The notes: generated by a model from the sequence alone, not told the origin. A stretch of 10,914 nucleotides of DNA from a virus (IMGVR_UViG_3300010283_000213:1-10914); one strand, 5' to 3'; shown: positions 2-10,914, counted from the stretch's first letter. Numbers and translations: made by a program.

Positions 2-2026
2 CAGGAACAGGACGGGCGACTGGCTGGCGATAACGTGCCACCTGTCTGGCTTGGAGAGCAACAACTTGCCGAACTGGACAACCTGCAAATCGTACCGGAC
101 GGACGCTATCGCGTGCGTCTCTATCAGGCGGGGTTATTGCGTCCGGGGCTTGTTAATACCATCGGGCAGAAACTGGCAGCGGCAGGTGTCAGGGATGCTG
201 ATTATTATCCTGAAGGAATGCACAGCCAGAAACGGGAGAACTGGCGCGAATATCTGGAACGTGAACGGGCAGAGCAGGCGGAAAAGAAAAAGGTAGTTGA
301 ACTGCCTGTAAAGAAAAAAGAGCCATGCTATCAGGATGATGAATTAAAGCCCCGCGTTGAAAGTCGCGTCGATGGTGTTTTCTGGGTAACGCCCAAAGTG
401 GATAAGCAGTCAGGCGAAATTATCCGGCCTGAGACGTGGTTATGTTCTCCGCTTGAACTACTGGGAACGGGGACGATCGGTAAAGAGCATTACCGCGTGA
501 TGCGCTGGAAAAAATTAGCAAACCATGAAGTCATCACAATGGCGATCCCGTGTGGTGGCATTGGCGACCGTGACGGCTGGCGGTTGCTTAAAGATCACGG
601 GCTGAATGTGACAACAAATGGCAAATACAGGGCTATCCTGGCTGACTGGATGCAGTTAAGCGGAAGCCATGAGGAATGGCAGTTAAGCACAACAACGGGC
701 TGGCATTTTGGCGCGTACATCATGCCGGACGGTTCAATCATTGGTGATTCTGAAAAACCGATCCTGTTTACCGGAAAAAGTGCCGCTGTTAATGGCTATT
801 CGGTTGCGGGTACGGCGGAGGGCTGGCGCGACAGCGTGGCGCGGCTGGCTGGTGGCAATCCGTCCATGATGCTGGGTGTTGCCACGTCACTGGCAGCACC
901 TTTGATTGGCCTTGTTGGTGCTGACGGCTTCGGGGTACATCTTTTCGAACAGTCATCGGCAGGGAAAACCACCACGCAGAACATCGCTTCAAGTTTATGG
1001 GGAGAGCCGGACGCGCAACGGCTGACCTGGTACGGAACGGCGTTAGGTATCGCCAACGAGGCCGAAGCACACAACGACGGGCTGTTACCCCTGGATGAAA
1101 TAGGCCAGGCCGGAAACGCGCGGGAAGTGTCCACGTCAGCCTATACGCTGTTTAACGGTTCGGGGAAATTACAGGGGGCGAAGGACGGCGGCAACAGGGA
1201 GATCAAACACTGGCGCACGGTGGCAATCAGCACCGGAGAAATGGATGTTGAGACATTCCTCAAAAGTGAGGGGGTAAAAGTCAAAGCAGGCCAGCTTGTC
1301 CGTCTGCTTAACGTACCGATGGAGAAAGCCACGCAATTTCACGAATACAGCACCGGAAAGGCGCACGCAGACGCGTTAAAGGATGCCTGGACTGCAAATC
1401 ACGGGGCGGCGGGTCGTGAGTGGGTTAAATGGCTGGCAGACCACCAGCAGGAGGCAAAGGACACGGTAAGGGAATGCCGCGAACGGTGGCACAACCTGAT
1501 ACCGGAGAGCTACGGCGAGCAGGTCCACCGCGTGGGGGAACGTTTCGCCATACTGGAGGCTGCGCTTGTGCTTTCCGGTCATGTAACTGGCTGGGCCGCG
1601 CAGGAATGCCGGGACGCAATACAGCATAACTTTAATGCCTGGGTGAAGGAGTTCGGCACGGGTAACAGGGAATTTAAACAGATGGTTGAACAGGCTGAGG
1701 CGTTTTTGTCGTCGTTCGGGTTCAGTCGATACCTTCCTTACCCAAACAGTGATGAGCGTGATTTACCGATTAAAGACCTTGCCGGATACAGAAAGGGGAG
1801 TATCAGAAATGAAGATGATGAGTTCCGTTTTTACACGTTTCCTCATGTGTTTGAGGGTGAGATAGCACAGGGATTTAATCCGTCTCACTTTGCCCGCGCG
1901 TTGAGTGCTGCCGGAATGCTGGAAGCGGGTAACGATCGCCGTTACAAGAAAAAGGCGCTCGGCAAAATTGGGGGTAAGCAGCATGTTTTTTACGTGATGA
2001 TGTTCCAGCCTGAGGCAGACGATTAA
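2..2026 (+). CDS. Replication primase/helicase (P4 alpha-like / Pri-Rep-like), 5'-partial: the reading frame is open to the window edge, so the GTG at 35 in the ORF track is not the true start
   Basis: Frame stays open from nt 2 with no upstream stop; 663+ aa; Walker A P-loop (SSAGKTTT) mid-protein; long C-terminal domain; TAA stop at 2024-2026; iteron array begins ~25 bp downstream, the usual replicon layout of P4-like and PICI satellites. Family assignment is from motif and context, not a search. Confidence 0.7.
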   Translation, partial: QEQDGRLAGDNVPPVWLGEQQLAELDNLQIVPDGRYRVRLYQAGLLRPGLVNTIGQKLAAAGVRDADYYPEGMHSQKRENWREYLERERAEQAEKKKVVELPVKKKEPCYQDDELKPRVESRVDGVFWVTPKVDKQSGEIIRPETWLCSPLELLGTGTIGKEHYRVMRWKKLANHEVITMAIPCGGIGDRDGWRLLKDHGLNVTTNGKYRAILADWMQLSGSHEEWQLSTTTGWHFGAYIMPDGSIIGDSEKPILFTGKSAAVNGYSVAGTAEGWRDSVARLAGGNPSMMLGVATSLAAPLIGLVGADGFGVHLFEQSSAGKTTTQNIASSLWGEPDAQRLTWYGTALGIANEAEAHNDGLLPLDEIGQAGNAREVSTSAYTLFNGSGKLQGAKDGGNREIKHWRTVAISTGEMDVETFLKSEGVKVKAGQLVRLLNVPMEKATQFHEYSTGKAHADALKDAWTANHGAAGREWVKWLADHQQEAKDTVRECRERWHNLIPESYGEQVHRVGERFAILEAALVLSGHVTGWAAQECRDAIQHNFNAWVKEFGTGNREFKQMVEQAEAFLSSFGFSRYLPYPNSDERDLPIKDLAGYRKGSIRNEDDEFRFYTFPHVFEGEIAQGFNPSHFARALSAAGMLEAGNDRRYKKKALGKIGGKQHVFYVMMFQPEADD

Positions 2027-2049
2027 CCCCCCTGTGTGAGGTGAAAAGT

Positions 2050-2174
2050 TGCGGGTTATGCGGGTTATCCTGTGTATAAGTGAATTAACTGTATGAATAA
2101 AAAGGAAATCAATAACCCGCACGTAACCCGCAAAACGGCAGTTATAACCCGCAAAAGTGCGATTATAACCCGCA
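2050..2174. repeat. Iteron-type replication origin (cluster 1): 2 tandem TGCGGGTTAT-type repeats (2050-2068), an AT-rich spacer, then 4 inverted copies (A/G)TAACCCGCA at 2112, 2123, 2144, 2165
   Basis: Directly read: 9-10 bp repeats in opposite orientations flanking an AT-rich stretch (2069-2111); downstream copies spaced 11, 21 and 21 bp; located immediately 3' of the primase/helicase gene. Confidence 0.7.
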
Positions 2175-2237
2175 GAATTTCACCGTAAGGGTGTAAACAA
2201 GCGTAACTATCAACGTTAAAACCGGAGAACAGACAGC

Positions 2238-2660
2238 ATGACAGCACAGATAGCAGCTTACGGGCGGCTGGTGGCTGACCCGCAGTTAAAGACCACCAGC
2301 AAGGGCACACAAATGGCTATGGCAAGCATGGCGGTCCACCTGCCGTGCAATCAGGCAGATGACGGACAGGCGACGATGTGGTTATCCGTCCTGGCGTTTG
2401 GCAGACAGGCCGACGCACTGGCAAAACACCACAAAGGCGAGCTGGTGAGCGTGGCGGGTAACATGCAGGTAAGCCAGTGGACAGGCCAGAACGGGGAAAC
2501 GCGGCAGGGCTGGCAGGTTATCGCAGACAGCGTAATCAGTGCCAGAACGGCGCGACCTGGTGGCAAAAAAGGCCAGCAGGGTCAGGCTACTGACGCTCTA
2601 AATAGGGCTAAGCAACAGGCGGGGAATGATGATCCATACGGGGATAACATACCCTTTTAG
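2238..2660 (+). CDS. ssb: Single-stranded DNA-binding protein (SSB-like, OB fold) with acidic C-terminal tail ending DNIPF
   Basis: 140 aa; ATG at 2238 with upstream GGAG; Gly/Gln-rich linker followed by acidic tail ...NDDPYGDNIPF resembling the DDDIPF tail of bacterial SSB; N-terminal region consistent with an OB fold. Confidence 0.75.
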   Translation: MTAQIAAYGRLVADPQLKTTSKGTQMAMASMAVHLPCNQADDGQATMWLSVLAFGRQADALAKHHKGELVSVAGNMQVSQWTGQNGETRQGWQVIADSVISARTARPGGKKGQQGQATDALNRAKQQAGNDDPYGDNIPF

Positions 2661-2677
2661 CGATAACAGGGGGATAC

Positions 2678-2926
2678 ATGCCAGTGACATTTGAAGAAGT
2701 TCAGCAACATAAAAAGTTTCATGGTATTGATGATCTGGAAACCACGACAGCAAAAAAATATCGCCGTCTGCTTTCTTCCGATGCGTTATTTGTTGTGGAT
2801 CATCATGATTTTCTGCGCAGCTCACTGACCGGGGAAATTTTCGCAACCAACCGTGAGCAGGTGGAAGCGATGATCGAATATTTGTGGAAAATAAGGCGCA
2901 GAATGCGCGATCCCGTGAAACAGTAA
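2678..2926 (+). CDS. Hypothetical small protein (82 aa), function unknown
   Basis: Strong SD (AGGGGGA) 6-8 nt upstream of ATG 2678; 17 nt after the ssb stop (operon-like); followed by an intrinsic terminator. No family recognised. Confidence 0.55.
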   Translation: MPVTFEEVQQHKKFHGIDDLETTTAKKYRRLLSSDALFVVDHHDFLRSSLTGEIFATNREQVEAMIEYLWKIRRRMRDPVKQ

Positions 2927-2935
2927 AGCGATAAA

Positions 2936-2963
2936 GGCCCGGATTTTTCCCGGGTCTTTTTTT
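2936..2963 (+). terminator. Candidate rho-independent terminator after the replication/ssb operon
   Basis: GC stem CCCGG (2938-2942) / CCGGG (2950-2954) with 7-nt loop, followed by TCTTTTTTT (2955-2963). Confidence 0.55.
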
Positions 2964-3023
2964 CAGGTTTTGTAAATTATTTGTTCGTGGTTGTTTCTGG
3001 CTGTTCAGTGATTCTGGCTGATA

Positions 3024-3051
3024 TTTACATACTGATTTTTATGTATATGTT
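3024..3051 (+). promoter_or_regulatory. Candidate sigma70-type promoter for the head/packaging operon (-35 TTTACA, 16-bp spacer, -10 TATGTT)
   Basis: Hexamer match only; sits in the 274-bp intergenic region upstream of the capsid gene. An activator-dependent promoter nearer the 15-bp direct repeats at 3098-3132 is equally possible. Confidence 0.25.
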
Positions 3052-3097
3052 GGCGTGTGGCACTCAGACGTGAGCCGCCACAATGCCGCCTGACCCC

Positions 3098-3132
3098 CTG
3101 CGCGATGCCGGGTTGATCTGCGAGATGCCGAG
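3098..3132. promoter_or_regulatory. Tandem 15-bp direct repeats CTGCG(C/A)GATGCCG(G/A)G spaced 20 bp apart, upstream of the capsid gene: candidate regulator binding sites
   Basis: Read directly: 3098-3112 and 3118-3132 (13/15 identical); a third ATGCCG at 3083-3088 about 22 bp upstream. Confidence 0.35.
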
Positions 3133-3200
3133 AGTGTCGGGCGGCGCTCCCTCCGTGTTGGTTTCACGTCCTGAATCTTAACCAATACGAGAAAACCTTC

Positions 3201-4370
3201 ATGAAGAAATTAATCGAACTCCGCCAGCAAAAAACCGCCCTGAAAAACCAGATGCGATCCCTGCTGGAAAAAGCCGACAGTGAAAACCGCAGCCTGAACG
3301 ATGACGAGGGCAAACAGTTTGATGAACTGCGTGCAAAAGCCGACTCCCTCGACACAGAAATTTCCCGCCTCGAGTCTGTGGCTGATGAAGAACGCAGCAA
3401 GCCAGGAACGGGCATCCAGAAATTATCATCTGATGAATTGCGTAACTACATCGTAACCGGAGATGTGCGATCACTGTCCACCAGCACTGACAGCGGCAGG
3501 GATGGCGGATATACCGTAATTCCTGAGCTCGATCGCGAAGTCATGCGCCAGCTACAGGATGACAGTGTTATGCGCGTGATCGCGACCGTGAAGACTGCAA
3601 AATCAAATGAGTTTCAGAAACTGGTTTCCACTGGCGGCGCAACTGTAGGACGAGGCACAGAAGGCAGCGCACGCAGTGAAACCAACACCCCGAAAATTGA
3701 ACGCGTAACCATCAAGCTGAATCCGATCTACGCCTACCCGAAAACCACGCAGGAAATCCTTGATTTTTCAGAGGTGGATATTCTGGGCTGGTTATCCTCC
3801 GAAATTGCCGACACGTTCGCCAGCACCGAAGAGGATGATTTTGTTAATGGCGACGGTAACGGCAAGCCGAAAGGCTTCATGGCTTACACCCGTGCGGCGA
3901 CCAGTGACAAAACCCGCGCTTTTGGCACCATTGAAAAAATGGTAGCGGCAAGTGGAACCGCCATTACAGCGGACGAACTGATCGACATTCTCTACAAGCT
4001 GAAAGCGAAATACCGCAAAAATGCCGTCTGGGTGATGAACTCGGGCACGGCAGGGACACTACAGAAGCTGAAAAATGAGAACGGCGATTATATCTGGCGC
4101 GACAGCCTTAAAGAAGGTGCGCCGGATATGTTGCTTGGTCGTCCTGTTTACTGCCTGGAGTCCATGCCGGACATCGGCGCAGGAAAAGCACCGCTAGCGG
4201 TTGGCGATTTCAGTCGTGGTTATTTCATCGTTGATCATGTAACAGGGATTCGCACCCGACCGGACAACATTACTGAACCCGGATTCTACAAGGTCCACAC
4301 GGATAAATATCTGGGCGGTGGTGTGGTGGATTCAAACGCCATCAAAATTCTGGAAATGAAAGCTGGCTAG
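3201..4370 (+). CDS. Major capsid protein, HK97 fold, with N-terminal coiled-coil scaffold (delta) domain
   Basis: 389 aa; N-terminal ~70 aa strongly charged with heptad-like pattern (MKKLIELRQQKTALKNQMRSLLEKA...), as in HK97-type capsid proteins with fused scaffold; followed by prohead protease and portal genes. Confidence 0.85.
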   Translation: MKKLIELRQQKTALKNQMRSLLEKADSENRSLNDDEGKQFDELRAKADSLDTEISRLESVADEERSKPGTGIQKLSSDELRNYIVTGDVRSLSTSTDSGRDGGYTVIPELDREVMRQLQDDSVMRVIATVKTAKSNEFQKLVSTGGATVGRGTEGSARSETNTPKIERVTIKLNPIYAYPKTTQEILDFSEVDILGWLSSEIADTFASTEEDDFVNGDGNGKPKGFMAYTRAATSDKTRAFGTIEKMVAASGTAITADELIDILYKLKAKYRKNAVWVMNSGTAGTLQKLKNENGDYIWRDSLKEGAPDMLLGRPVYCLESMPDIGAGKAPLAVGDFSRGYFIVDHVTGIRTRPDNITEPGFYKVHTDKYLGGGVVDSNAIKILEMKAG

Positions 4371-4382
4371 TCATGAGTAAGG

Positions 4383-4405
4383 AGGAGGCTGCGGCCTCCT
4401 TTTTC
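4383..4405 (+). terminator. Candidate intrinsic terminator/attenuator immediately after the major capsid gene
   Basis: Perfect 7-bp stem AGGAGGC (4383-4389) / GCCTCCT (4394-4400), 4-nt loop TGCG, then TTTTC. Confidence 0.55.
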
Positions 4406-4424
4406 AGCTTTATGGAGTACACCG

Positions 4425-4985
4425 ATGAAAAACACCGATTTTGAAATCCGCACATCTGAACTGACCGCCAGCAATAAAAAGCTGGTGGGGTATGCCGTTC
4501 GCTGGAACAGCCTTTCAGAAATTATCTGGGACGAATTCCGCGAACAGTTCACGCCGGGGGCTTTTGCTGACTATCTGGCGGCGGGTAATGATGTGCGCTG
4601 CCTGTATGAGCATGACTATACCCAACTGCTGGGGCGCACCAAATCCGGCACTCTGGTACTGACTGAGGATAACACCGGGTTACGTTTTGAACTGACACCG
4701 CCGGATACCCAGCTTGGAAAAGATGTGCTTACGCTGGTGGAGCGTGGCGACATTACAGGAATGAGCTTTGGTTTTCGCGCATTATGCGAGGAGTGGAGTA
4801 TCGCGCAAAAACCGTATTTGCGTACCGTAACCGCCGCTGAACTCCGTGAAATCACAATAACGTCGATGCCTGCTTATCCAGAATCTGGCGTGGAGATTGC
4901 CCACCGTTCGTTGTTTGCACAGCACCCTGAATTATGCCCGACAGGAAATAATCGTCATCGCTGGTCTGAGCTGGCGGGGTTGTGA
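4425..4985 (+). CDS. Prohead maturation protease, HK97 family (peptidase S78/U35-like)
   Basis: 186 aa; position between capsid and portal genes; N-terminal MKNTDFEIRTSEL...GYAVRWNS... typical of HK97-type prohead proteases; SD-like GGAG upstream. Confidence 0.8.
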   Translation: MKNTDFEIRTSELTASNKKLVGYAVRWNSLSEIIWDEFREQFTPGAFADYLAAGNDVRCLYEHDYTQLLGRTKSGTLVLTEDNTGLRFELTPPDTQLGKDVLTLVERGDITGMSFGFRALCEEWSIAQKPYLRTVTAAELREITITSMPAYPESGVEIAHRSLFAQHPELCPTGNNRHRWSELAGL

Positions 4986-4986
4986 T

Positions 4987-6201
4987 ATGTGGTGGCCTTT
5001 TAGTCGTAAAAAAAGCGAGCAGCGTAACCTGTCCATTGATGATTTTCTGGCGCTGTCCGGCGTACCGAATACCGGATCCGGAGAATATGTTTCTGCCGGG
5101 ACGGCTGAATCATTGCCTGCAGTGATGAATGCGGTTTCTGTCATCGCTGAGGCGGTGGCCACGATGCCGTGTTATCTGTATCTGGTACGTAATGACAAGG
5201 GCAGGGAGGCGCGGGAATGGCTGGACAGTCACCCGGTAGATATTCTGCTGAATGAGCAGCCTAATTCGTGCCAGACACCTTACCAGTTTAAACGCACAAT
5301 GATGCGTCACTGCCTGCTGAACGGTAACGCCTATGCGGTTATTGAGTGGGGGCAGGACGGGCAGCCAAAATCACTTCATCCTTATGCGCCGGGGTGTGTT
5401 GTACCGGAACGCACAGGCGCACACAAATACCGCTATACCATCACCGAACCCTGTACAGGAACGGTGCGCACGTATTTACAGGAAGAAGTTCTGCATCTCC
5501 GCTATGCCTCGGATGATGGCTTTCTGGGGCGTTCCCCCGTCACGATTTGCCGTGAGGCGCTGGGGCTTGGCCTTGCTCAACAGCGTCACGGAGCCAGCAT
5601 TATGAAAGATGGCATGATGGCGGCAGGGATTATCACGTCAGGCGAATGGCTGGACGGTGTGAAAGGTAAACAGGCATTAGACGCCCTGGAACGCTACAAG
5701 GGGGCGAAAAATGCCGGAAAAACGCCAATCCTTGAAGGGGGCATGGATTACAAGCAACTGGGAATGAGTAACCAGGATGCGGAATGGCTGGCCTCCCGTC
5801 GCTTCTCCATTGAAGACATCGCCCGCATGTTCAACGTATCGCCTATTTTTCTGCAGGAATACAGCAACAGCACCTACAGCAATTTCAGCGAGGCAAGCCG
5901 CGCGTTTCTGACCATGACAATGCGCCCGTGGCTGGCGAACTTCGAACAGCAAATCAAGGCCGCTTTGCTGGTGGCTTCTCCCGTACCTGGTACCCGTTAT
6001 CTGGTTGAGTTTGATTCAGCCGATTTATTACGCGCCACACCCACCGAACGTTATGCCACGTATGAGAAAGGGATTAAGAACGGGATCATGAATCCGAACG
6101 AAGCCCGTGAGCGTGAGGGTATGCCGCCGCGTGAAGGTGGTGATGAGTTCAGCCAGGCATGGAAACAGACTGTGGAAATTAAAGGGAGAAAAGATGAGTG
6201 A
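4987..6201 (+). CDS. Portal protein, HK97 family
   Basis: ATG at 4987 one nt after the protease stop (the ORF track's 4897 start would overlap the protease gene by 89 nt); ~404 aa; size and context fit a portal. Confidence 0.8.
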   Translation: MWWPFSRKKSEQRNLSIDDFLALSGVPNTGSGEYVSAGTAESLPAVMNAVSVIAEAVATMPCYLYLVRNDKGREAREWLDSHPVDILLNEQPNSCQTPYQFKRTMMRHCLLNGNAYAVIEWGQDGQPKSLHPYAPGCVVPERTGAHKYRYTITEPCTGTVRTYLQEEVLHLRYASDDGFLGRSPVTICREALGLGLAQQRHGASIMKDGMMAAGIITSGEWLDGVKGKQALDALERYKGAKNAGKTPILEGGMDYKQLGMSNQDAEWLASRRFSIEDIARMFNVSPIFLQEYSNSTYSNFSEASRAFLTMTMRPWLANFEQQIKAALLVASPVPGTRYLVEFDSADLLRATPTERYATYEKGIKNGIMNPNEAREREGMPPREGGDEFSQAWKQTVEIKGRKDE

Positions 6202-6496
6202 AGCCAGAATTACACCTGATGAAGTCAGGGCACATCTTCGACTTGATGATGATTTATCCGGTGAAGGCGAACTTCTGAAAATGTATACCGATGCGGCGCT
6301 GGAAGCCTGCCAGAAGCATATCGGGAAACGTTTTGAAGACGGGCTGGAATTTACCCCGGCAATGCGTGTTGGTTGCCTGATGTACATCGCTTTCCTGTAC
6401 GAGAACCGGGAAGCGGTTTCACCAGTGGAGCACTCGGAACTGCCTATGGCTATTTCTGCGCTCTGGTCAGTTTATCGTGACGTAGGGGTGTACTGA
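6194..6496 (+). CDS. Head-tail connector / DNA-packaging protein, gp6-like
   Basis: Internal ATG at 6194 preceded by AAGGGAGAA; 100 aa; overlaps portal stop by 8 nt and shares ATGA with the next gene (translational coupling); MSEARITPDEVRAHLRLDDD... resembles gp6-like connector N-termini. Confidence 0.65.
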   Translation: MSEARITPDEVRAHLRLDDDLSGEGELLKMYTDAALEACQKHIGKRFEDGLEFTPAMRVGCLMYIAFLYENREAVSPVEHSELPMAISALWSVYRDVGVY

Positions 6497-6936
6497 TGCC
6501 GTGGCAACCATTAAGGCGATGCACTGAGCCTGGCTGTAATAAGCGCGTGAAGTCCGGCAAGTGTGAAGAGCACAGGCGGGCTGCATGGCGTGCAGAGGAT
6601 GCCAGACGGGGACACCGCCGCGCGCGCGGGTATTCCCGACAGTGGGACAAATACCGCGCCCTGTACCTGAGCAAAAACCCGTTATGCGTGCGTTGTCTGG
6701 CTAAGGGGATTTATACGCCAGCTCTTGTGGTGGATCACATCATTCCCATCAATGGCGGCGGTGATGTTCTCTTCTGGCCTGAGTGGAATCACCAGGCATT
6801 GTGCCAGACGTGCCACAACCGTAAGACGACACGGGAAGATCCAGCCACGAAAGCAAACCGTAAAGCGGGCATGTATCGCGAGCAGGAAGAACGGGCGGCA
6901 CACCGTAACGACTGGATGTATGGCGATGATGACTGA
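6496..6936 (+). CDS. HNH endonuclease (phage terminase-associated HNH)
   Basis: 146 aa; Cys-rich N-terminus (CTEPGCNKRVKSGKCEEH) and HNH motif (VVDHIIPINGGGD...WNHQALCQTCHNRKT); located just upstream of the terminase genes, as in cos-type HK97-like phages. Confidence 0.85.
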   Translation: MPWQPLRRCTEPGCNKRVKSGKCEEHRRAAWRAEDARRGHRRARGYSRQWDKYRALYLSKNPLCVRCLAKGIYTPALVVDHIIPINGGGDVLFWPEWNHQALCQTCHNRKTTREDPATKANRKAGMYREQEERAAHRNDWMYGDDD

Positions 6937-7105
6937 ACAGGAGCAAACCAGGCTGATACGTGGACTGATAAGGCAGCGTGACACATGGAAGACACAGGAG
7001 ACAGAGCACAAAGCCAACAGGACAGGGCGCACAAAACGCACCACAGCGAAGCGATTAACCGACCGTGACCGCGAGGTCATGGAATGTTTTCGCAATCGCT
7101 GGTGA
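6926..7105 (+). CDS. Possible small, highly basic protein (about 59 aa); coding status uncertain
   Basis: Frame-2 ORF whose unique part (6937-7105) lies between HNH and terS; Arg/Lys/Thr-rich product; DNA is A+C-rich and T-poor, so it may instead be non-coding packaging-site DNA. Confidence 0.25.
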   Translation: MMTEQEQTRLIRGLIRQRDTWKTQETEHKANRTGRTKRTTAKRLTDRDREVMECFRNRW

Positions 7106-7180
7106 GGCCGTCAGAGGGGGTGGGGGTGGTTTTCAGGACGAAACCGTCCCTGCCGGACACCGACCGCCCCCTCAAATTTT
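7106..7180. promoter_or_regulatory. GC-rich inverted-repeat element between HNH and terS: candidate cos/packaging recognition region
   Basis: GAGGGGGTGGGGGTGG (7114-7129) facing CCGACCGCCCCCTC (7160-7173), with inner palindromes GGACG..CGTCC and GTCC..GGAC (7135-7159); position HNH-[site]-terS matches where cos lies in HNH-terminase phages. Confidence 0.3.
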
Positions 7181-7224
7181 TGTGCACGGTAATTTTTTTG
7201 AAAATAATTGGGCGAAAAAAGAAC

Positions 7225-7581
7225 ATGGCAAGACCACCAAAAGCCCCCGCTTACCTGGATGAAATCGCGGTCAGGCAGTGGAAGGAAAAATCGCGCCAGC
7301 TTTCCGGGCGGGAAGACCTTACCCCCGCCGACTGGAGCAATCTGGAACTGTATTGCGTTAACTACTCCATATACCGCAAAGCCGTCGAAGACCTTGCGAC
7401 GCGCGGGTTCAGCATTGTTAACAGTCAGGGCAGCGAGAGCAGAAACCCCGCCCTGAGCGCAAAGGCTGACGCAGAAAGAATAATGATCAAAATGGCTTCT
7501 TTGCTGGGTTTTGACCCGGTAAGCCGCCGCAGAAATCCACCGGAAACAGAGGAAGAGGACGAGCTTGACTGCCTGGCATGA
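7225..7581 (+). CDS. terS: Terminase small subunit (P27-family-like)
   Basis: Internal ATG at 7225 (MARPPKAPAYLDEIAVRQWKEK...), 118 aa; the track's 7084 start would run through the GC-rich element; directly upstream of and overlapping the large terminase. Confidence 0.7.
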   Translation: MARPPKAPAYLDEIAVRQWKEKSRQLSGREDLTPADWSNLELYCVNYSIYRKAVEDLATRGFSIVNSQGSESRNPALSAKADAERIMIKMASLLGFDPVSRRRNPPETEEEDELDCLA

Positions 7582-9226
7582 GTACGCAGAAGGCGTAAAA
7601 AACGGCAAAATTACGGCCTGTAAACGACTGAAACAGGCCGTTAAACGGTATTTTTCTGACCTTGAAAACCCCCTTTACACGTTCGATCCGGAGGTCGTTG
7701 AGCGGTTTATTGCCTTTTCCAGGGTGTGTCCGCACGTAAAAGGCGCAATGCGTGGTAGCCCCATTGAGCTGGAGCCGTGGCAGCAGTTCGCCTTTGCGTG
7801 CATCCTGGGCTTTAAGGTTAAGGCCACCGGACGGCGCAAATACACCAGCGCATTCATTGAAGTACCGCGAAAAAATGCCAAATCCACGGTCGCCGCTATC
7901 CTGGCTAACTGGTTTCTGGTTATGGAAAACGGGCAGCAGGATATTTACACCGCCGCCGTGAGTCGTGATCAGGCGCGGATCGTGTTTGATGATGCGCGTC
8001 AGATGTGCCTTTTATCCCGACCGTTACGAAAGCGGGTAAATATTCAGGCACACAAGGTGATACACCCGAAAACCAACAGCCTGTTAAAGCCACTGGCAGC
8101 AAAAGCAGCAACCATTGAAGGTACAAACCCGAGTCTTGCCATTGTGGATGAATATCACCTGCACCCTGACAACGGGGTTTATTCCGCGCTTGAACTGGGA
8201 ATGGGGGCACGCCCAGAGGGGCTGTTATTTGCCATCACCACATCGGGGAGCAACGTTGTTTCAGCCTGTAAACAACACTACGACTATTGCTGCCAGATAC
8301 TGGATGGTGAAGAGGTGAACGAATCCATGTTCGTGCTGATTTATGAGCTGGATGATGAAAGCGAGGTTGACGATCCGGCGATGTGGATAAAGGCGAATCC
8401 CAATATCGATGTTTCCGTAGATCGTGAAAAACTGGCCTCAACCATCCAGAAAGCGCGGGGTATTCCGTCGCAGTGGGTGGAAATGCTCACCAAGCGATTC
8501 AATATCTGGTGTCAGGGGGCTACGCCGTGGATGGGTAACGGTGCATGGGCTGAGTGCGCCGGAACGTTCACGGAGGAAGATTTACACGGTCAGGAGTGTT
8601 ACGCGGGGCTTGATTTATCATCCACAAGCGACATCTCCAGCGTGTGCTATGCCTTTCCGGTTGGTAAAACCATTATGCTGGTTTCTCGTCACTATCTGCC
8701 GGAATTTCAGCTACAGAACCCCGCCAATAAAAACCGCGCCATCTATCGCCAGTGGGCAAAGGCGGGCTGGATACGCACAACACCGGGTGACTGCATTGAT
8801 TATGACCGTATCCGTGATGACATCATGCTGGATGCAGAGAATTTCAATATCAGGCTGGTGGGCTTTGATACGTGGAACGCCACGCACCTGAGAACGCAGT
8901 TACAGGGGGCAGGCTTTGAGGTGGAGCCGTTCCCTCAAACCTACCTTCGTTTCAGTCCGGCGGCGAAATCGTTCGAGGTTTTTGTTAACCGGAAGGTGAT
9001 TGTGCATCGTGGTGATCCTGTGCTGGCCTGGTCAATGAGTAATGTTGTGATGCAGAGTGACGCGAACGCCAATATCAAGCCGAACAAGAAAAAATCATCC
9101 AACAAGATAGACCCGAGCGTTGCGGCGCTGATGGCGTTTGGCACATTCCAGGCTGAGCATGAGGAATTTGCATTTGATATGAGCGACAGCCAGAAAGAGC
9201 GACTAGCGGCGTTTGATGGGGTATGA
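7565..9226 (+). CDS. terL: Terminase large subunit (ATPase + nuclease)
   Basis: 553 aa; Walker A-like PRKNAKST, Walker B-like LAIVDEYH, C-terminal acidic nuclease-type region; TTG start at 7565 overlapping terS end (an alternative downstream start is possible). Confidence 0.85.
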   Translation: MTAWHEYAEGVKNGKITACKRLKQAVKRYFSDLENPLYTFDPEVVERFIAFSRVCPHVKGAMRGSPIELEPWQQFAFACILGFKVKATGRRKYTSAFIEVPRKNAKSTVAAILANWFLVMENGQQDIYTAAVSRDQARIVFDDARQMCLLSRPLRKRVNIQAHKVIHPKTNSLLKPLAAKAATIEGTNPSLAIVDEYHLHPDNGVYSALELGMGARPEGLLFAITTSGSNVVSACKQHYDYCCQILDGEEVNESMFVLIYELDDESEVDDPAMWIKANPNIDVSVDREKLASTIQKARGIPSQWVEMLTKRFNIWCQGATPWMGNGAWAECAGTFTEEDLHGQECYAGLDLSSTSDISSVCYAFPVGKTIMLVSRHYLPEFQLQNPANKNRAIYRQWAKAGWIRTTPGDCIDYDRIRDDIMLDAENFNIRLVGFDTWNATHLRTQLQGAGFEVEPFPQTYLRFSPAAKSFEVFVNRKVIVHRGDPVLAWSMSNVVMQSDANANIKPNKKKSSNKIDPSVAALMAFGTFQAEHEEFAFDMSDSQKERLAAFDGV

Positions 9227-9513
9227 CGAGAATGACTGAAACTGATCTACTAAAAATAATTCGCCGCATTACCGGAATCAGTCAGCAGCCTGACGAACAG
9301 GCTACACAGCCGGACAGCGTGATAGCCGAAAATTACGCGCGTGTGGTGGCTGAGGTAATGCGCCGTGACGGTATTGAGCTTAACGGCGTGGATATGCGCA
9401 ACATACGAACCAGAGTTCTTGAGTTGCTGGCATACCGTCGCCGTTCTCAACAACGGAGGGAGAGCGCGAAAAATACTTACCAGTGGAGGAAGCCGGAGCA
9501 CTTACGGCGGTAA
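9223..9513 (+). CDS. Hypothetical small protein (96 aa), last gene of the packaging operon; possibly a head-completion/adaptor protein
   Basis: ATG overlaps the terL stop (ATGA); Arg-rich C-terminus; no family recognised. The adaptor role is inferred from position only. Confidence 0.5.
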   Translation: MTRMTETDLLKIIRRITGISQQPDEQATQPDSVIAENYARVVAEVMRRDGIELNGVDMRNIRTRVLELLAYRRRSQQRRESAKNTYQWRKPEHLRR

Positions 9514-9552
9514 CTGGTTGATATTACCGAAAGTGCAAAAATGCACTTAGCA

Positions 9553-9646
9553 ACTGGTGGCGAGTTGCAGATCTGCAACTCGACTATGAAACTACGGAAA
9601 CTACCCGTAGTTTGGGTAGTAAGAGCAACACCCAGATTTTGGGGCT
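9553..9646. repeat. 94-bp structured direct repeat, copy 1 (contains a 22-bp perfect palindrome and nested heptamer repeats)
   Basis: 90/94 identical to 9987-10080; palindrome CGAGTTGCAGATCTGCAACTCG at 9561-9582; then AAACTAC-GG-AAACTAC-CC-GTAGTTT-GG-GTAGT. Confidence 0.8.
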
Positions 9647-9708
9647 TACTTGCGATACCCAAATATAGGGTATCGGTGGCATCACTGGCCCCACTTTCCT
9701 GATGTGTT

Positions 9709-9862
9709 TGCGGGTTATTTGGGGGTGGTTGCGGGTTATTTTGAATGGCTTGCGGGTTACGATTTGGCTAACATTTGAACGTGTCATTTTTCAACGCATT
9801 GATATTAAATAATAAAAAATACTTAGCACGCGAAGATAACCCGCTAACCCGCATAACCCGCA
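9709..9862. repeat. Second iteron cluster (ori- or crr-like): 3 direct TGCGGGTTA(T/C) at exact 21-bp phasing (9709, 9730, 9751), a ~75-bp AT-rich spacer, then 3 inverted TAACCCGC copies (9836-9862)
   Basis: Same iteron sequence as cluster 1 at 2050-2174; followed by (TA)5 at 9882-9891; no ORF of convincing coding character spans it. Confidence 0.7.
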
Positions 9863-9986
9863 CTGTTTTGTATATATATACGAAAAATTGCATTCAGGAG
9901 GGGGAGCAAAATCCCTACCGTCTCTTATCTCTTGGAGTGCCCGCCTCTTCGAATTTTAACCCCCGTGAAATTACAAAATTTCCCTG

Positions 9987-10080
9987 ACTGATGGCGAGTT
10001 GCAGATCTGCAACTCGACCATGAAATTACGGAAACTACCCGTAGTTTGGGTAGTAAGAGTAACACCCAGATTTTGGGGCT
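9987..10080. repeat. 94-bp structured direct repeat, copy 2; ends exactly at the IS903 left terminus
   Basis: Mismatches to copy 1 at 4 positions; palindrome at 9995-10016; similarity to copy 1 stops at 10080, where the IS terminal inverted repeat begins. Confidence 0.8.
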
Positions 10081-10914
10081 GGCTTTGTTGAATAAATCGA
10101 ACTTTTGCTGAGTTGAAGGATCAGAGCACGTATCTTCCCGACAACGCAGACCGTTCCGTGGCAAAGCAAAAGTTCAAAATCACCAACTTGCCCACCTACA
10201 ATAAAGCCCTCATCAACCGTGGCTCCATAACTTTCTGGCTGGATGATGAAGCCATTCAGGCCTGGTATGAGTCGGCAACGCCTTCATCACGGGGAAGACC
10301 TCAGCGCTATTCTGATCTCGCCGTCACCACCGTTCTGGTCATTAAACGCGTGTTCAGGCTGACCCTGCGGGCTGCACAGGGTTTTATTGATTCCATTTTT
10401 ACACTGATAAATGTTCCGTTGCGCTGCCCGGATTACACCAGTGTCAGCAAGCGCGCAAAGTCGGTTAATGTCAGTTTCAAAACGTTCACCCGAGGTGAAA
10501 TCGCGCATCTGGTGATTGATTCCACCGGGCTGAAGGTCTTTGGTGAAGGCGAATGGAAAGTCAAAAAACACGGCAAAGAACGCCGTCGTATCTGGCGGAA
10601 GTTGCATCTGGCCGTTGACAGCAACACACATGAAATCATCTGTGCAGACCTGTCGCTGAACAACGTAACGGACTCAGAAGCCTTCCCGGGTCTTATCCGG
10701 CAGACTCACAGAAAAATCAGGGCAGCATCGGCAGATGGCGCTTACGACACCCGGCTCTGTCACGATGAACTGCGGCGTAAGAAAATCAGCGCCCTTATCC
10801 CACCCCGAAAAGGTGCGGGTTACTGGCCCGGTGAATATGCAGACCGTAACCGTGCAGTGGCTAATCAGCGAATGACCGGGAGTAATGCGCGGTGGAAATG
10901 GACAACAGATTACA
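10081..10914 (+). mobile_element. IS903-group (IS5 family) insertion sequence, left end and most of the transposase gene; continues beyond the window
   Basis: Starts with GGCTTTGTTGAATAAATCG, which I recognise as the IS903 terminal inverted repeat; the downstream ORF translates to a DDE transposase closely resembling IS903 transposase as I recall it. Confidence 0.85.
10158..10914 (+). CDS. IS903-group DDE transposase, 3'-partial (runs off the window)
   Basis: Hand translation from GTG 10158 is open to the window end (252 codons): VAKQKFKITN...LHLAVDSNTHEIICADLSLNNVTDSEAFPGLIRQ...ASADGAYDTRLCHDEL... Absent from the ORF track only because no stop is reached. Start could also be the TTG at 10113. 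Confidence 0.85.
   Translation, partial: MAKQKFKITNLPTYNKALINRGSITFWLDDEAIQAWYESATPSSRGRPQRYSDLAVTTVLVIKRVFRLTLRAAQGFIDSIFTLINVPLRCPDYTSVSKRAKSVNVSFKTFTRGEIAHLVIDSTGLKVFGEGEWKVKKHGKERRRIWRKLHLAVDSNTHEIICADLSLNNVTDSEAFPGLIRQTHRKIRAASADGAYDTRLCHDELRRKKISALIPPRKGAGYWPGEYADRNRAVANQRMTGSNARWKWTTDY

Follow-up and report, generated by a model that had tools for sequence, protein, structure and literature searches.

Phage-inducible chromosomal islands (PICIs) and the Staphylococcus aureus pathogenicity islands (SaPIs) have an origin in which iterons flank an AT-rich region immediately 3' of rep (PMC6092414, PMC9371898). PICI replication is currently described as the action of one Rep on one rep-adjacent origin. 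In satellite phage P4 the alpha protein binds two sites, ori and crr, and crr is needed in cis. Plasmid R6K has a gamma enhancer that acts on the alpha and beta origins by looping. The subject here is a 10,914-nt stretch of viral DNA, IMGVR_UViG_3300010283_000213:1-10914 (the window), which on its gene content is the right-hand portion of a capsid-forming PICI (cf-PICI), a phage-parasitic island of Escherichia coli. It has two clusters of the same iteron, one beside the gene for its DUF927-family Rep helicase and one beyond the packaging genes. Comparison with relatives, covering about 90 loci, leads us to predict a Rep-dependent replication origin that is probably in two parts, with the distal cluster as its second half.

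Two mirror-image iteron clusters and their known counterparts

The features on which the argument turns are as follows.

2..2026, plus strand: Rep initiator-helicase of the DUF927 family (the 3' 674 codons, the N-terminus lying beyond the window; Pfam DUF927, E = 6.8e-48)
2050..2174, no strand: predicted origin module 1 (cluster 1), with tight iterons at 2050-2068, an AT-rich spacer at 2069-2111 and inverted iterons at 2112-2174
9709..9862, no strand: predicted origin module 2 (cluster 2), with phased iterons at 9709-9760, an AT-rich spacer at 9761-9835 and tight inverted iterons at 9836-9862

The anatomy of the two modules, their co-variation, conservation and co-occurrence are matters of observation. 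The repeat GCGGGTTA has 13 exact matches in the window against 0.33 expected, a number reached by 0 of 200 shuffles, and a search with TGCGGGTTAT allowing up to one mismatch returns the identical 13 sites. Six copies fall in 2050-2174 and six in 9709-9862; the thirteenth, at 10814-10823, is a chance match within the transposase gene of an insertion sequence (IS). The two same-repeat clusters about 7.6 kb apart that a preliminary description of this DNA had reported are confirmed by these 12 copies, and the positions and spacings it gave also hold. Cluster 1 occupies the canonical site downstream of the helicase gene, beginning 24 nt past its stop codon, with plus-strand copies 9 nt apart at 2050 and 2059, a spacer of 43 nt with 72% A+T and minus-strand copies at 2112, 2123, 2144 and 2165 (spacings 11, 21 and 21). 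Cluster 2 sits beyond the last packaging gene, terL, and one small open reading frame (ORF). Its plus-strand copies at 9709, 9730 and 9751 are spaced by exactly 21 nt, a 75-nt spacer of 69% A+T follows, and minus-strand copies at 9836, 9844 and 9853 (spacings 8 and 9) are succeeded by (TA)5 at 9871-9880. The A+T content of the entire window is 47.8%.

Cluster 2 has the reverse-complement architecture of cluster 1: three tight copies, an AT-rich stretch and three phased copies in the one, against two tight, AT-rich and four phased in the other. The phased arrays of both modules face the intervening ~7.5 kb and the tight arrays point outward. When the intact 15.5-kb relative L001 is closed to a circle, the modules lie 8.0 and 7.5 kb apart along its two arcs. 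In shorter islands they are not opposite each other, so no inference is drawn from these arc lengths.

Opposed iteron sets around an AT-rich region, one trait of the PICI/SaPI origin, are present in both clusters; the other trait, a position immediately 3' of rep, is true of cluster 1 and not of cluster 2, which is 7.6 kb downstream. Cluster 1 agrees with the known origin in position and layout, cluster 2 agrees in layout and iteron, and the Rep is homologous. The published systems have a single origin by rep, whereas here a second complete, inverted module stands at the far end beside a cos-like site. No description of a second origin module or of a crr analogue was found in the PICI and cf-PICI literature searched.

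The likeness to P4 is one of arrangement. Both systems have two sites kilobases apart that share an octamer iteron, with one site directly downstream of the helicase-primase gene; P4 ori and crr are annotated 4.5 kb apart with the common iteron TGTTCACC, and in the crr unit, too, inverted copies come after two tight ones spaced by 9 nt. The initiators, however, are unrelated in sequence (BLASTP of the Rep against P4 alpha gave no significant similarity, best E = 0.11), and the P4 iteron is TGTTCACC. In P4, crr consists of two direct 120-nt repeats and is rep-proximal, whereas the sites described here are mirror images of each other; cluster 2 is a single module, and the 127-nt direct repeats that flank it carry no iterons. 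The parallel with ori and crr drawn in the preliminary description stands as an analogy and not as homology, the helicase being of the SaPI Rep type. The rep-proximal site of P4 is crr, the distal one ori. The best reading of these comparisons is that cluster 2 is a predicted second origin module bound by the cognate Rep, functionally like the P4 ori/crr pair and not homologous to it. The PICI iteron origin and the two cooperating iteron sites of P4 are already known; what is new is a second module that is conserved across genera, that either adjoins the first or has the whole cargo region between itself and the first, and that in E. coli is joined to a phage-type cos.

Co-variation of the modules with Rep and conservation of module 2

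Both modules share one iteron in each of six iteron classes, found in Escherichia, Serratia, Yersinia and Tenebrionibacter, and changes of iteron between relatives occur in both modules together. The distance between modules is about 60 nt, or 2 to >10 kb. Relatives of this Rep in other species go with other iterons, and most of them have a second cluster of the matching iteron.

Iteron GCGGGTTA: E. coli; contiguous and split layouts both occur
Iteron CTTGTCCC: L006 and L007; modules 2.3 kb apart
Iteron GTTGTCCC: L047 and L050; module 2 directly after module 1
Iteron TGGGTTA: L016 and L060; module 2 directly after module 1
Iteron GGGATAA: L008; module 2 directly after module 1
Iteron GAACCAA: Serratia L013 and L014, 2-5 kb apart; Yersinia L010, adjacent; L012, partly decayed

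Where the modules abut (L008, L016, L060, L047 and L050) they make one mirror-symmetric unit. Seven viral contigs, L078 among them, have, starting about 60 nt after cluster 1, a module 2 homologous to cluster 2 of the window; the two versions have the spacer, the tight triplet and a TATA motif in common, and that of L078 ends in TTTTGTATATATATACGAAAAATTG. Because a homologous module 2 is found in contiguous and in split layouts, cluster 2 can be taken as half of a two-part origin region, and since relatives keep the modules together, side by side or kilobases apart, the origin is probably two-part. One further arrangement was seen in Yersinia pekkanenii (L010), where the double-module origin occurs three times in 6 kb (7144-7403, 11726-11985 and 12907-13196), which suggests tandem islands or a repeated replication module.

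The Rep offers a candidate for what reads the iteron. By tblastn, window positions 2-2023 correspond to residues 34-707 of the L001 Rep. The protein is homologous to the SaPI Rep helicase (PDB 8tch, E = 6.6e-15; also 5dgk), and its Pfam match is DUF927 rather than D5_N/Pox_D5. In SaPI Reps, which are self-loading helicases, a C-terminal winged-helix domain binds the iterons on either side of the AT-rich region, a single hexamer on each (PMC9371898). The helicase cores of E. coli DUF927 Reps share 91-95% identity with that of L001. The last ~107 residues divide by iteron: they are 92-95% identical to L001 in Reps that accompany GCGGGTTA iterons and 34-36% identical in those with TTGTCCC iterons, and the L016 Rep (TGGGTTA iterons) is intermediate, at 66% in the C-terminal domain. 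The iteron class at both modules tracks the class of the Rep C-terminal domain, which suggests that this domain of the cognate Rep is the putative reader of the iterons.

The N-terminal domain was considered as the reader of those clusters, described below, that stand beside unrelated Reps. It was rejected because its identity does not track the class of iteron: this domain is 78% identical between L001 and L006, whose iterons differ, and 39% identical between L001 and L003, which have the same iteron. This N-terminal stretch of ~130 aa (window 2-~300; L004 4437-4830; L058 2390-2780) is a mosaic module common to three helicase types, being fused to DUF927, AAA_25 RepA-like and D5_N/Pox_D5 P4-alpha-like helicases.

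Within cluster 2 the iteron cores change much less than the spacers. The alignment comprised 24 unique variants of cluster 2, drawn from genomes, viral contigs and metagenomes, and one decayed copy was excluded from the column counts. In the remaining 23, variation touches 2 of 48 columns in the iteron cores and 51 of 104 columns in the spacers (Fisher p = 1e-8), and all keep the 21-nt phasing. The IHF consensus WATCAANNNNTTR has only two matches in the window, at 9511-9523 and 9792-9804 (minus strand), both in right-end non-coding DNA; the second lies within the cluster 2 spacer and is present in 24 of 24 variants, its N positions varying. The metagenomic copy L040 has a fourth tight iteron in cluster 2. 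A scan of 9200-10100 for sigma-70 promoters and terminators found none in or beside cluster 2, which leaves a role as operator or promoter without support.

We propose the following model, in which the binding of Rep, the melting of DNA and whatever effect these have on replication are predicted from sequence. The C-terminal domain of the DUF927 helicase-initiator would read the 8-9 nt iteron. Each module, a tight array and a 21-nt-phased array opposed around an AT-rich stretch, is arranged like the sites where SaPI/PICI Rep hexamers attach, melt the DNA and load themselves. Module 2 mirrors module 1 and abuts it in some relatives; in the present island the SSB gene and the head and packaging operon stand between the two. 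Rep bound at module 2 might fire a second initiation site; alternatively, Rep-Rep contacts and an IHF-induced bend might loop module 2 to module 1 and stimulate it in cis, in the manner of P4 crr and ori.

An opposite role can be conceived for the same interaction. The incA locus of plasmid P1 and incC of F are iteron arrays understood to limit initiation by titration or handcuffing, and with R6K gamma they share with this locus a second iteron cluster for the same initiator away from the origin. Cluster 2 could in this way be a negative copy-control locus that binds the cognate Rep, titrates or 'handcuffs' the origin and so limits initiation. Its iteron is the same as that of the origin and co-varies with the Rep C-terminal domain, it is distant from the origin, and islands can lose it and persist with another Rep, all as such a locus would predict. 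Yet the distal sites of these plasmids are not mirror copies of a whole origin with its AT-rich region, and their initiators belong to other families. Cluster 2 differs from a plain array of the incA/incC type in its AT-rich spacer and IHF consensus; it retains the full origin layout, which would be superfluous for titration, and abutting modules form one mirror-symmetric unit. We regard negative control as rather unlikely.

Co-occurrence, losses and orphan copies

The 60 best E. coli matches to window 1500-9990 were used to ask how the modules occur together. Thirty-eight start in the DUF927 gene, contain cluster 1 and run past cluster 2 (checked in four loci). Both clusters are missing from 21, which begin after cluster 1 and end precisely at the end of the first direct repeat. 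One match has cluster 2 only, and in no match does cluster 1 stand alone. In a sample of viral contigs chosen by their cluster 1, all 13 informative loci have module 2 (7 adjacent, 6 distal); 15 further contigs end too early to be informative.

The 21 islands without clusters encode a P4-alpha-like Rep (D5_N/Pox_D5) with CTGTTCACC iterons (checked in L058 and L090), and CTGTTCACC contains the P4 type I iteron TGTTCACC. One such sister island, L058, whose Rep has D5_N/Pox_D5, has packaging genes 98.7% identical to those of the window, yet exactly the repeat-bounded unit is missing. The preliminary description had offered the absence of cluster 2 from otherwise identical islands as evidence against its proposal. 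Such islands do exist; having exchanged the DUF927 Rep and its origin for a P4-like Rep, they support the link between Rep and module 2 rather than refute it. Module 2 is not needed by islands that use another Rep. In L058 (4221-4445) and L059 (7984-8208), nine CTGTTCACC copies follow the P4-alpha-like Rep in one compact region, with no distal cluster.

Several observations weigh against a two-part origin. The co-occurrence counts ignore shared ancestry. No second cluster was found within 10 kb in L009, nor in the 4.9 kb up to the contig end in L011. A rep-ori plasmid of EcCICFT073, an island whose Rep may or may not be of this type, replicated from the proximal ori alone (PMC6092414); when EcCICFT073 was sought in CFT073 at 1.39-1.44 Mb, only a lambdoid prophage was found. 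AlphaFold models of the C-terminal 142 aa of the Rep reached a pLDDT (predicted local distance difference test) of 41 from the single sequence and 46 with a 27-sequence alignment, too poor for use. Finally, orphan right-end clusters of GCGGGTTA stand beside unrelated Reps or origins in eight islands; some are sequence-identical to copies in matched islands, and the one in L018 is decaying. The orphan clusters are accompanied as follows.

L004 (SA53-3) and L018: AAA_25 helicase, AAGTGGG iterons
L024 and L027: own iterons ACTGTTCA
L042 and L046: own iterons CTGTCTAC
L047: own iterons GTTGTCCC
L061: P4-like Rep

Given these orphans, the link between Rep and module 2 is, on the sequences compared, strong and not absolute. 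Cluster 1 is accompanied by module 2 in 38 of 38 E. coli matches and 13 of 13 informative contigs, and the orphans show module 2 apart from this Rep. Identity between orphan and matched copies points to recent recombinational exchange of a cassette made of the cluster and its cos, which can persist without its Rep. Orphan clusters may hitch-hike with the cos-like site or may be amplified by the Rep of a co-resident island, and they suggest cross-talk between co-resident satellites.

Taken further, the orphans would fit a cluster 2 that is a functionless relic, either an ancestral half-origin or a captured island end, kept by linkage to the cos-like site and the 127-nt repeats. Copies beside unrelated Reps are common, copies in matched and mismatched islands can be identical, the L018 copy is decaying, and the unit is flanked by direct repeats and precisely missing in L058. 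Against this stand the strong conservation of iteron cores relative to spacers, the retention of phasing and IHF site, the matched second modules in six iteron classes and four genera, and the finding that cluster 1 is without module 2 in no informative locus. We consider a relic unlikely.

A second half of a two-part origin remains our preferred reading of cluster 2. The alternatives that the preliminary description had proposed, a crr-like cis element or a second origin, gain support from the six shared iteron classes, the tracking of the C-terminal domain, the conservation of the cores and the co-occurrence. A bolder form of this reading, which we offer as a doubtful possibility, is that the enterobacterial satellite origin would be obligately two-part and mirror-symmetric, its halves cooperating across up to ~10 kb by Rep-mediated, IHF-assisted looping, with the distal half and cos forming a portable 'replicate-and-package' cassette. 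Such a two-part origin would be convergent with P4 ori/crr on an unrelated, SaPI-type helicase, and the cassette would allow the commonest Rep to amplify, in trans, islands whose own Rep is different.

PICIs and cf-PICIs, which are abundant, drive gene transfer and are now the object of engineering for use as delivery vehicles. If the second module is functional, it would redefine the minimal replicon, the island boundaries and the cis elements that synthetic PICIs need; cargo would be seen as acquired between origin halves; and the islands would provide, alongside P4, a second independent example of a phage satellite whose iteron sites cooperate over a long range.

The right end of the island and its cos-like segments

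Cluster 2 lies ~570 nt inward of attR in intact relatives. L001 (at gcd/hpt) and L002 (at cspD/clpS) differ in integrase and chromosomal flanks and have in common the stretch from the regulatory genes to ~170 nt before attR, including cluster 2 and both direct repeats. A right-end cluster 2 also occurs in islands at thiM, yqeG and tRNA-Pro/yejO, and within a prophage terL gene. Since it is found inside the att bounds of islands with different integrases and integration sites, cluster 2 is not the origin remnant of a degraded neighbouring element, as had also been suggested, and this candidate was rejected. The other features of the window are listed here.

2238..9513, plus strand: inter-module genes (SSB, major capsid, prohead protease, portal, connector, HNH, terS of the P27 family, terL and a small ORF)
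7155..7189, plus strand: cos-like segment belonging to the island itself, lying between HNH and terS, with core GACCGCCCCC at 7162-7171 (by-eye alignment to the phiP27 cos region)
9553..9679, plus strand: direct repeat copy 1, 127 nt (blastn against L001), with a perfect 22-nt palindrome at 9561-9582
9680..9708, plus strand: conserved leader immediately upstream of module 2 (alignment of 24 unique cluster-2 variants)
9863..9890, plus strand: CTGTTTTGTATATATATACGAAAAATTG motif and (TA)n tract, which constantly flank module 2 on its outer side, in every lineage examined
9891..9987, plus strand: phiP27-type cos-like segment 'cos1', core TGCCCGCCTC at 9938-9947, ~30 nt downstream of cluster 2
9987..10080, plus strand: direct repeat copy 2, truncated by the IS, of the same repeat family as copy 1
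10081..10914, plus strand: IS5-family (IS903-like) insertion sequence (Pfam DDE_Tnp_1_5, E = 2.9e-37, and DDE_Tnp_1), with a terminal inverted repeat at 10081

The CTGTTTTGTATATATATACGAAAAATTG motif trails the tight copies of module 2 even where module 2 adjoins module 1, and the (TA)n tract beside cluster 2 (window 9871-9880) has 5 to 9 units depending on the strain. The ~100 nt beyond cluster 2 show homology to the cos region annotated in phiP27, its 10-nt core included. The homologous segment of L004 (13226-13307) matches phiP27 21764-21845 at 88% over 82 nt, spanning the annotated cos-site and identical for ~45 nt across the 10-nt core; it is also similar to the ends of Burkholderia phage genomes. 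In phiP27, the site is between HNH and terS, a position occupied in the island by the cos-like segment at 7155-7189, whereas the island has in addition a more diverged right-end copy, and its relatives two. The third copy in uninterrupted relatives follows the second direct repeat (L001 18487-18570). In E. coli, module 2 moves as a cassette with the phiP27-type cos-like site at the right end of islands. The tail after cluster 2 had been considered as a classical PICI cos; this was rejected, as the literature places that cos beside rpp and BLAST gave a cos of the phiP27 type. Classical PICIs without capsid genes (L004 and L006) have a copy identical to phiP27 over ~45 nt with the cos core included, which suggests that they are packaged by helper terminases of the P27/HK97 type.

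The proximity of cos raises the question of whether the cluster 2 repeats are a packaging signal, that is, binding sites of the small terminase like the R sites of lambda cosB. The phiP27-type segment ~30 nt downstream and the IHF consensus inside cluster 2, as in lambda cosB (PMC9026076), would suit such a role. The same repeat, however, also forms the rep-adjacent origin and tracks the Rep C-terminal domain rather than terS, and L058 has an identical TerS protein (WP_001353110.1) and no cluster 2. Contiguous copies of module 2 have no cos downstream, repeats of this kind are missing from the cos region of phiP27 itself, and the canonical cos position of the island is upstream of terS, at 7155-7189. 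A packaging signal is very unlikely.

The 127-nt direct repeats that bracket cluster 2 are 94-97% identical; they contain the perfect 22-nt palindrome CGAGTTGCAGATCTGCAACTCG, and each strand folds strongly (z = -5.5 and -6.8). In L058 and other sister islands there is one copy only, so recombination between two copies would add or remove exactly the unit of cluster 2 and cos1. This unit of 434 nt, an origin module and a cos-like site between direct repeats and gained or lost as a block, might be seen as a separate neighbouring or nested mini-element ending in the 127-nt repeats. It holds no gene and lies within the att sites of the island, and the module lacks the repeats in L003, L004, L006 and L063 and adjoins module 1 in others, so that a mini-element is scarcely credible. 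Scans of the window against Rfam (E up to 1) and for tRNAs gave no match, which places the iterons and the 127-nt repeat outside known RNA families.

The assignment of the island follows from its genes, called from Pfam matches and the RefSeq annotation of near-identical islands. The window has, in order, the DUF927 Rep helicase, SSB, a head and packaging module of HK97/P27 type and the IS. DNA 98% identical to it is found in E. coli chromosomes as a 15.5-kb island with a 22-nt att repeat at its ends (L001), which has an integrase and AlpA/Icd-type regulators and lacks tail and lysis genes. The term capsid-forming PICI is used here as in 10.1101/2022.09.08.507074; such islands are described as elements of ~10-18 kb with integrase, regulation and replication modules, without tail or lysis genes, and with their own capsid, protease, portal, connector, HNH, terS and terL (10.1101/2025.02.11.637232). 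The island has all of these features, taking the Pfam matches of the window together with the full L001 island. The layout of the E. coli 042 island (L063) matches that of the window island, and this member is presumably the island named EcCIO42 in PMC6092414. The 042 cf-PICI (L063 1-885 and 16116-16859) is integrated in an HK97-like prophage, inside the large-terminase gene, which it splits.

Between the small ORF and the IS lie about 570 nt of non-coding DNA. The IS903-like element, which does not belong to the feature, is inserted in the second direct repeat and substitutes, inside the window, for the last ~650 nt of the island; uninterrupted relatives have in its place 72 nt, cos2 and attR. 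Upstream of the first direct repeat the closest relatives have 270 additional nt (L001 17545-17813 against window 9544/9510), flanked by repeated GTAACTGGTTGATATT...hairpin modules, an insert that points to a right-end non-coding region built from reshuffled short modules.

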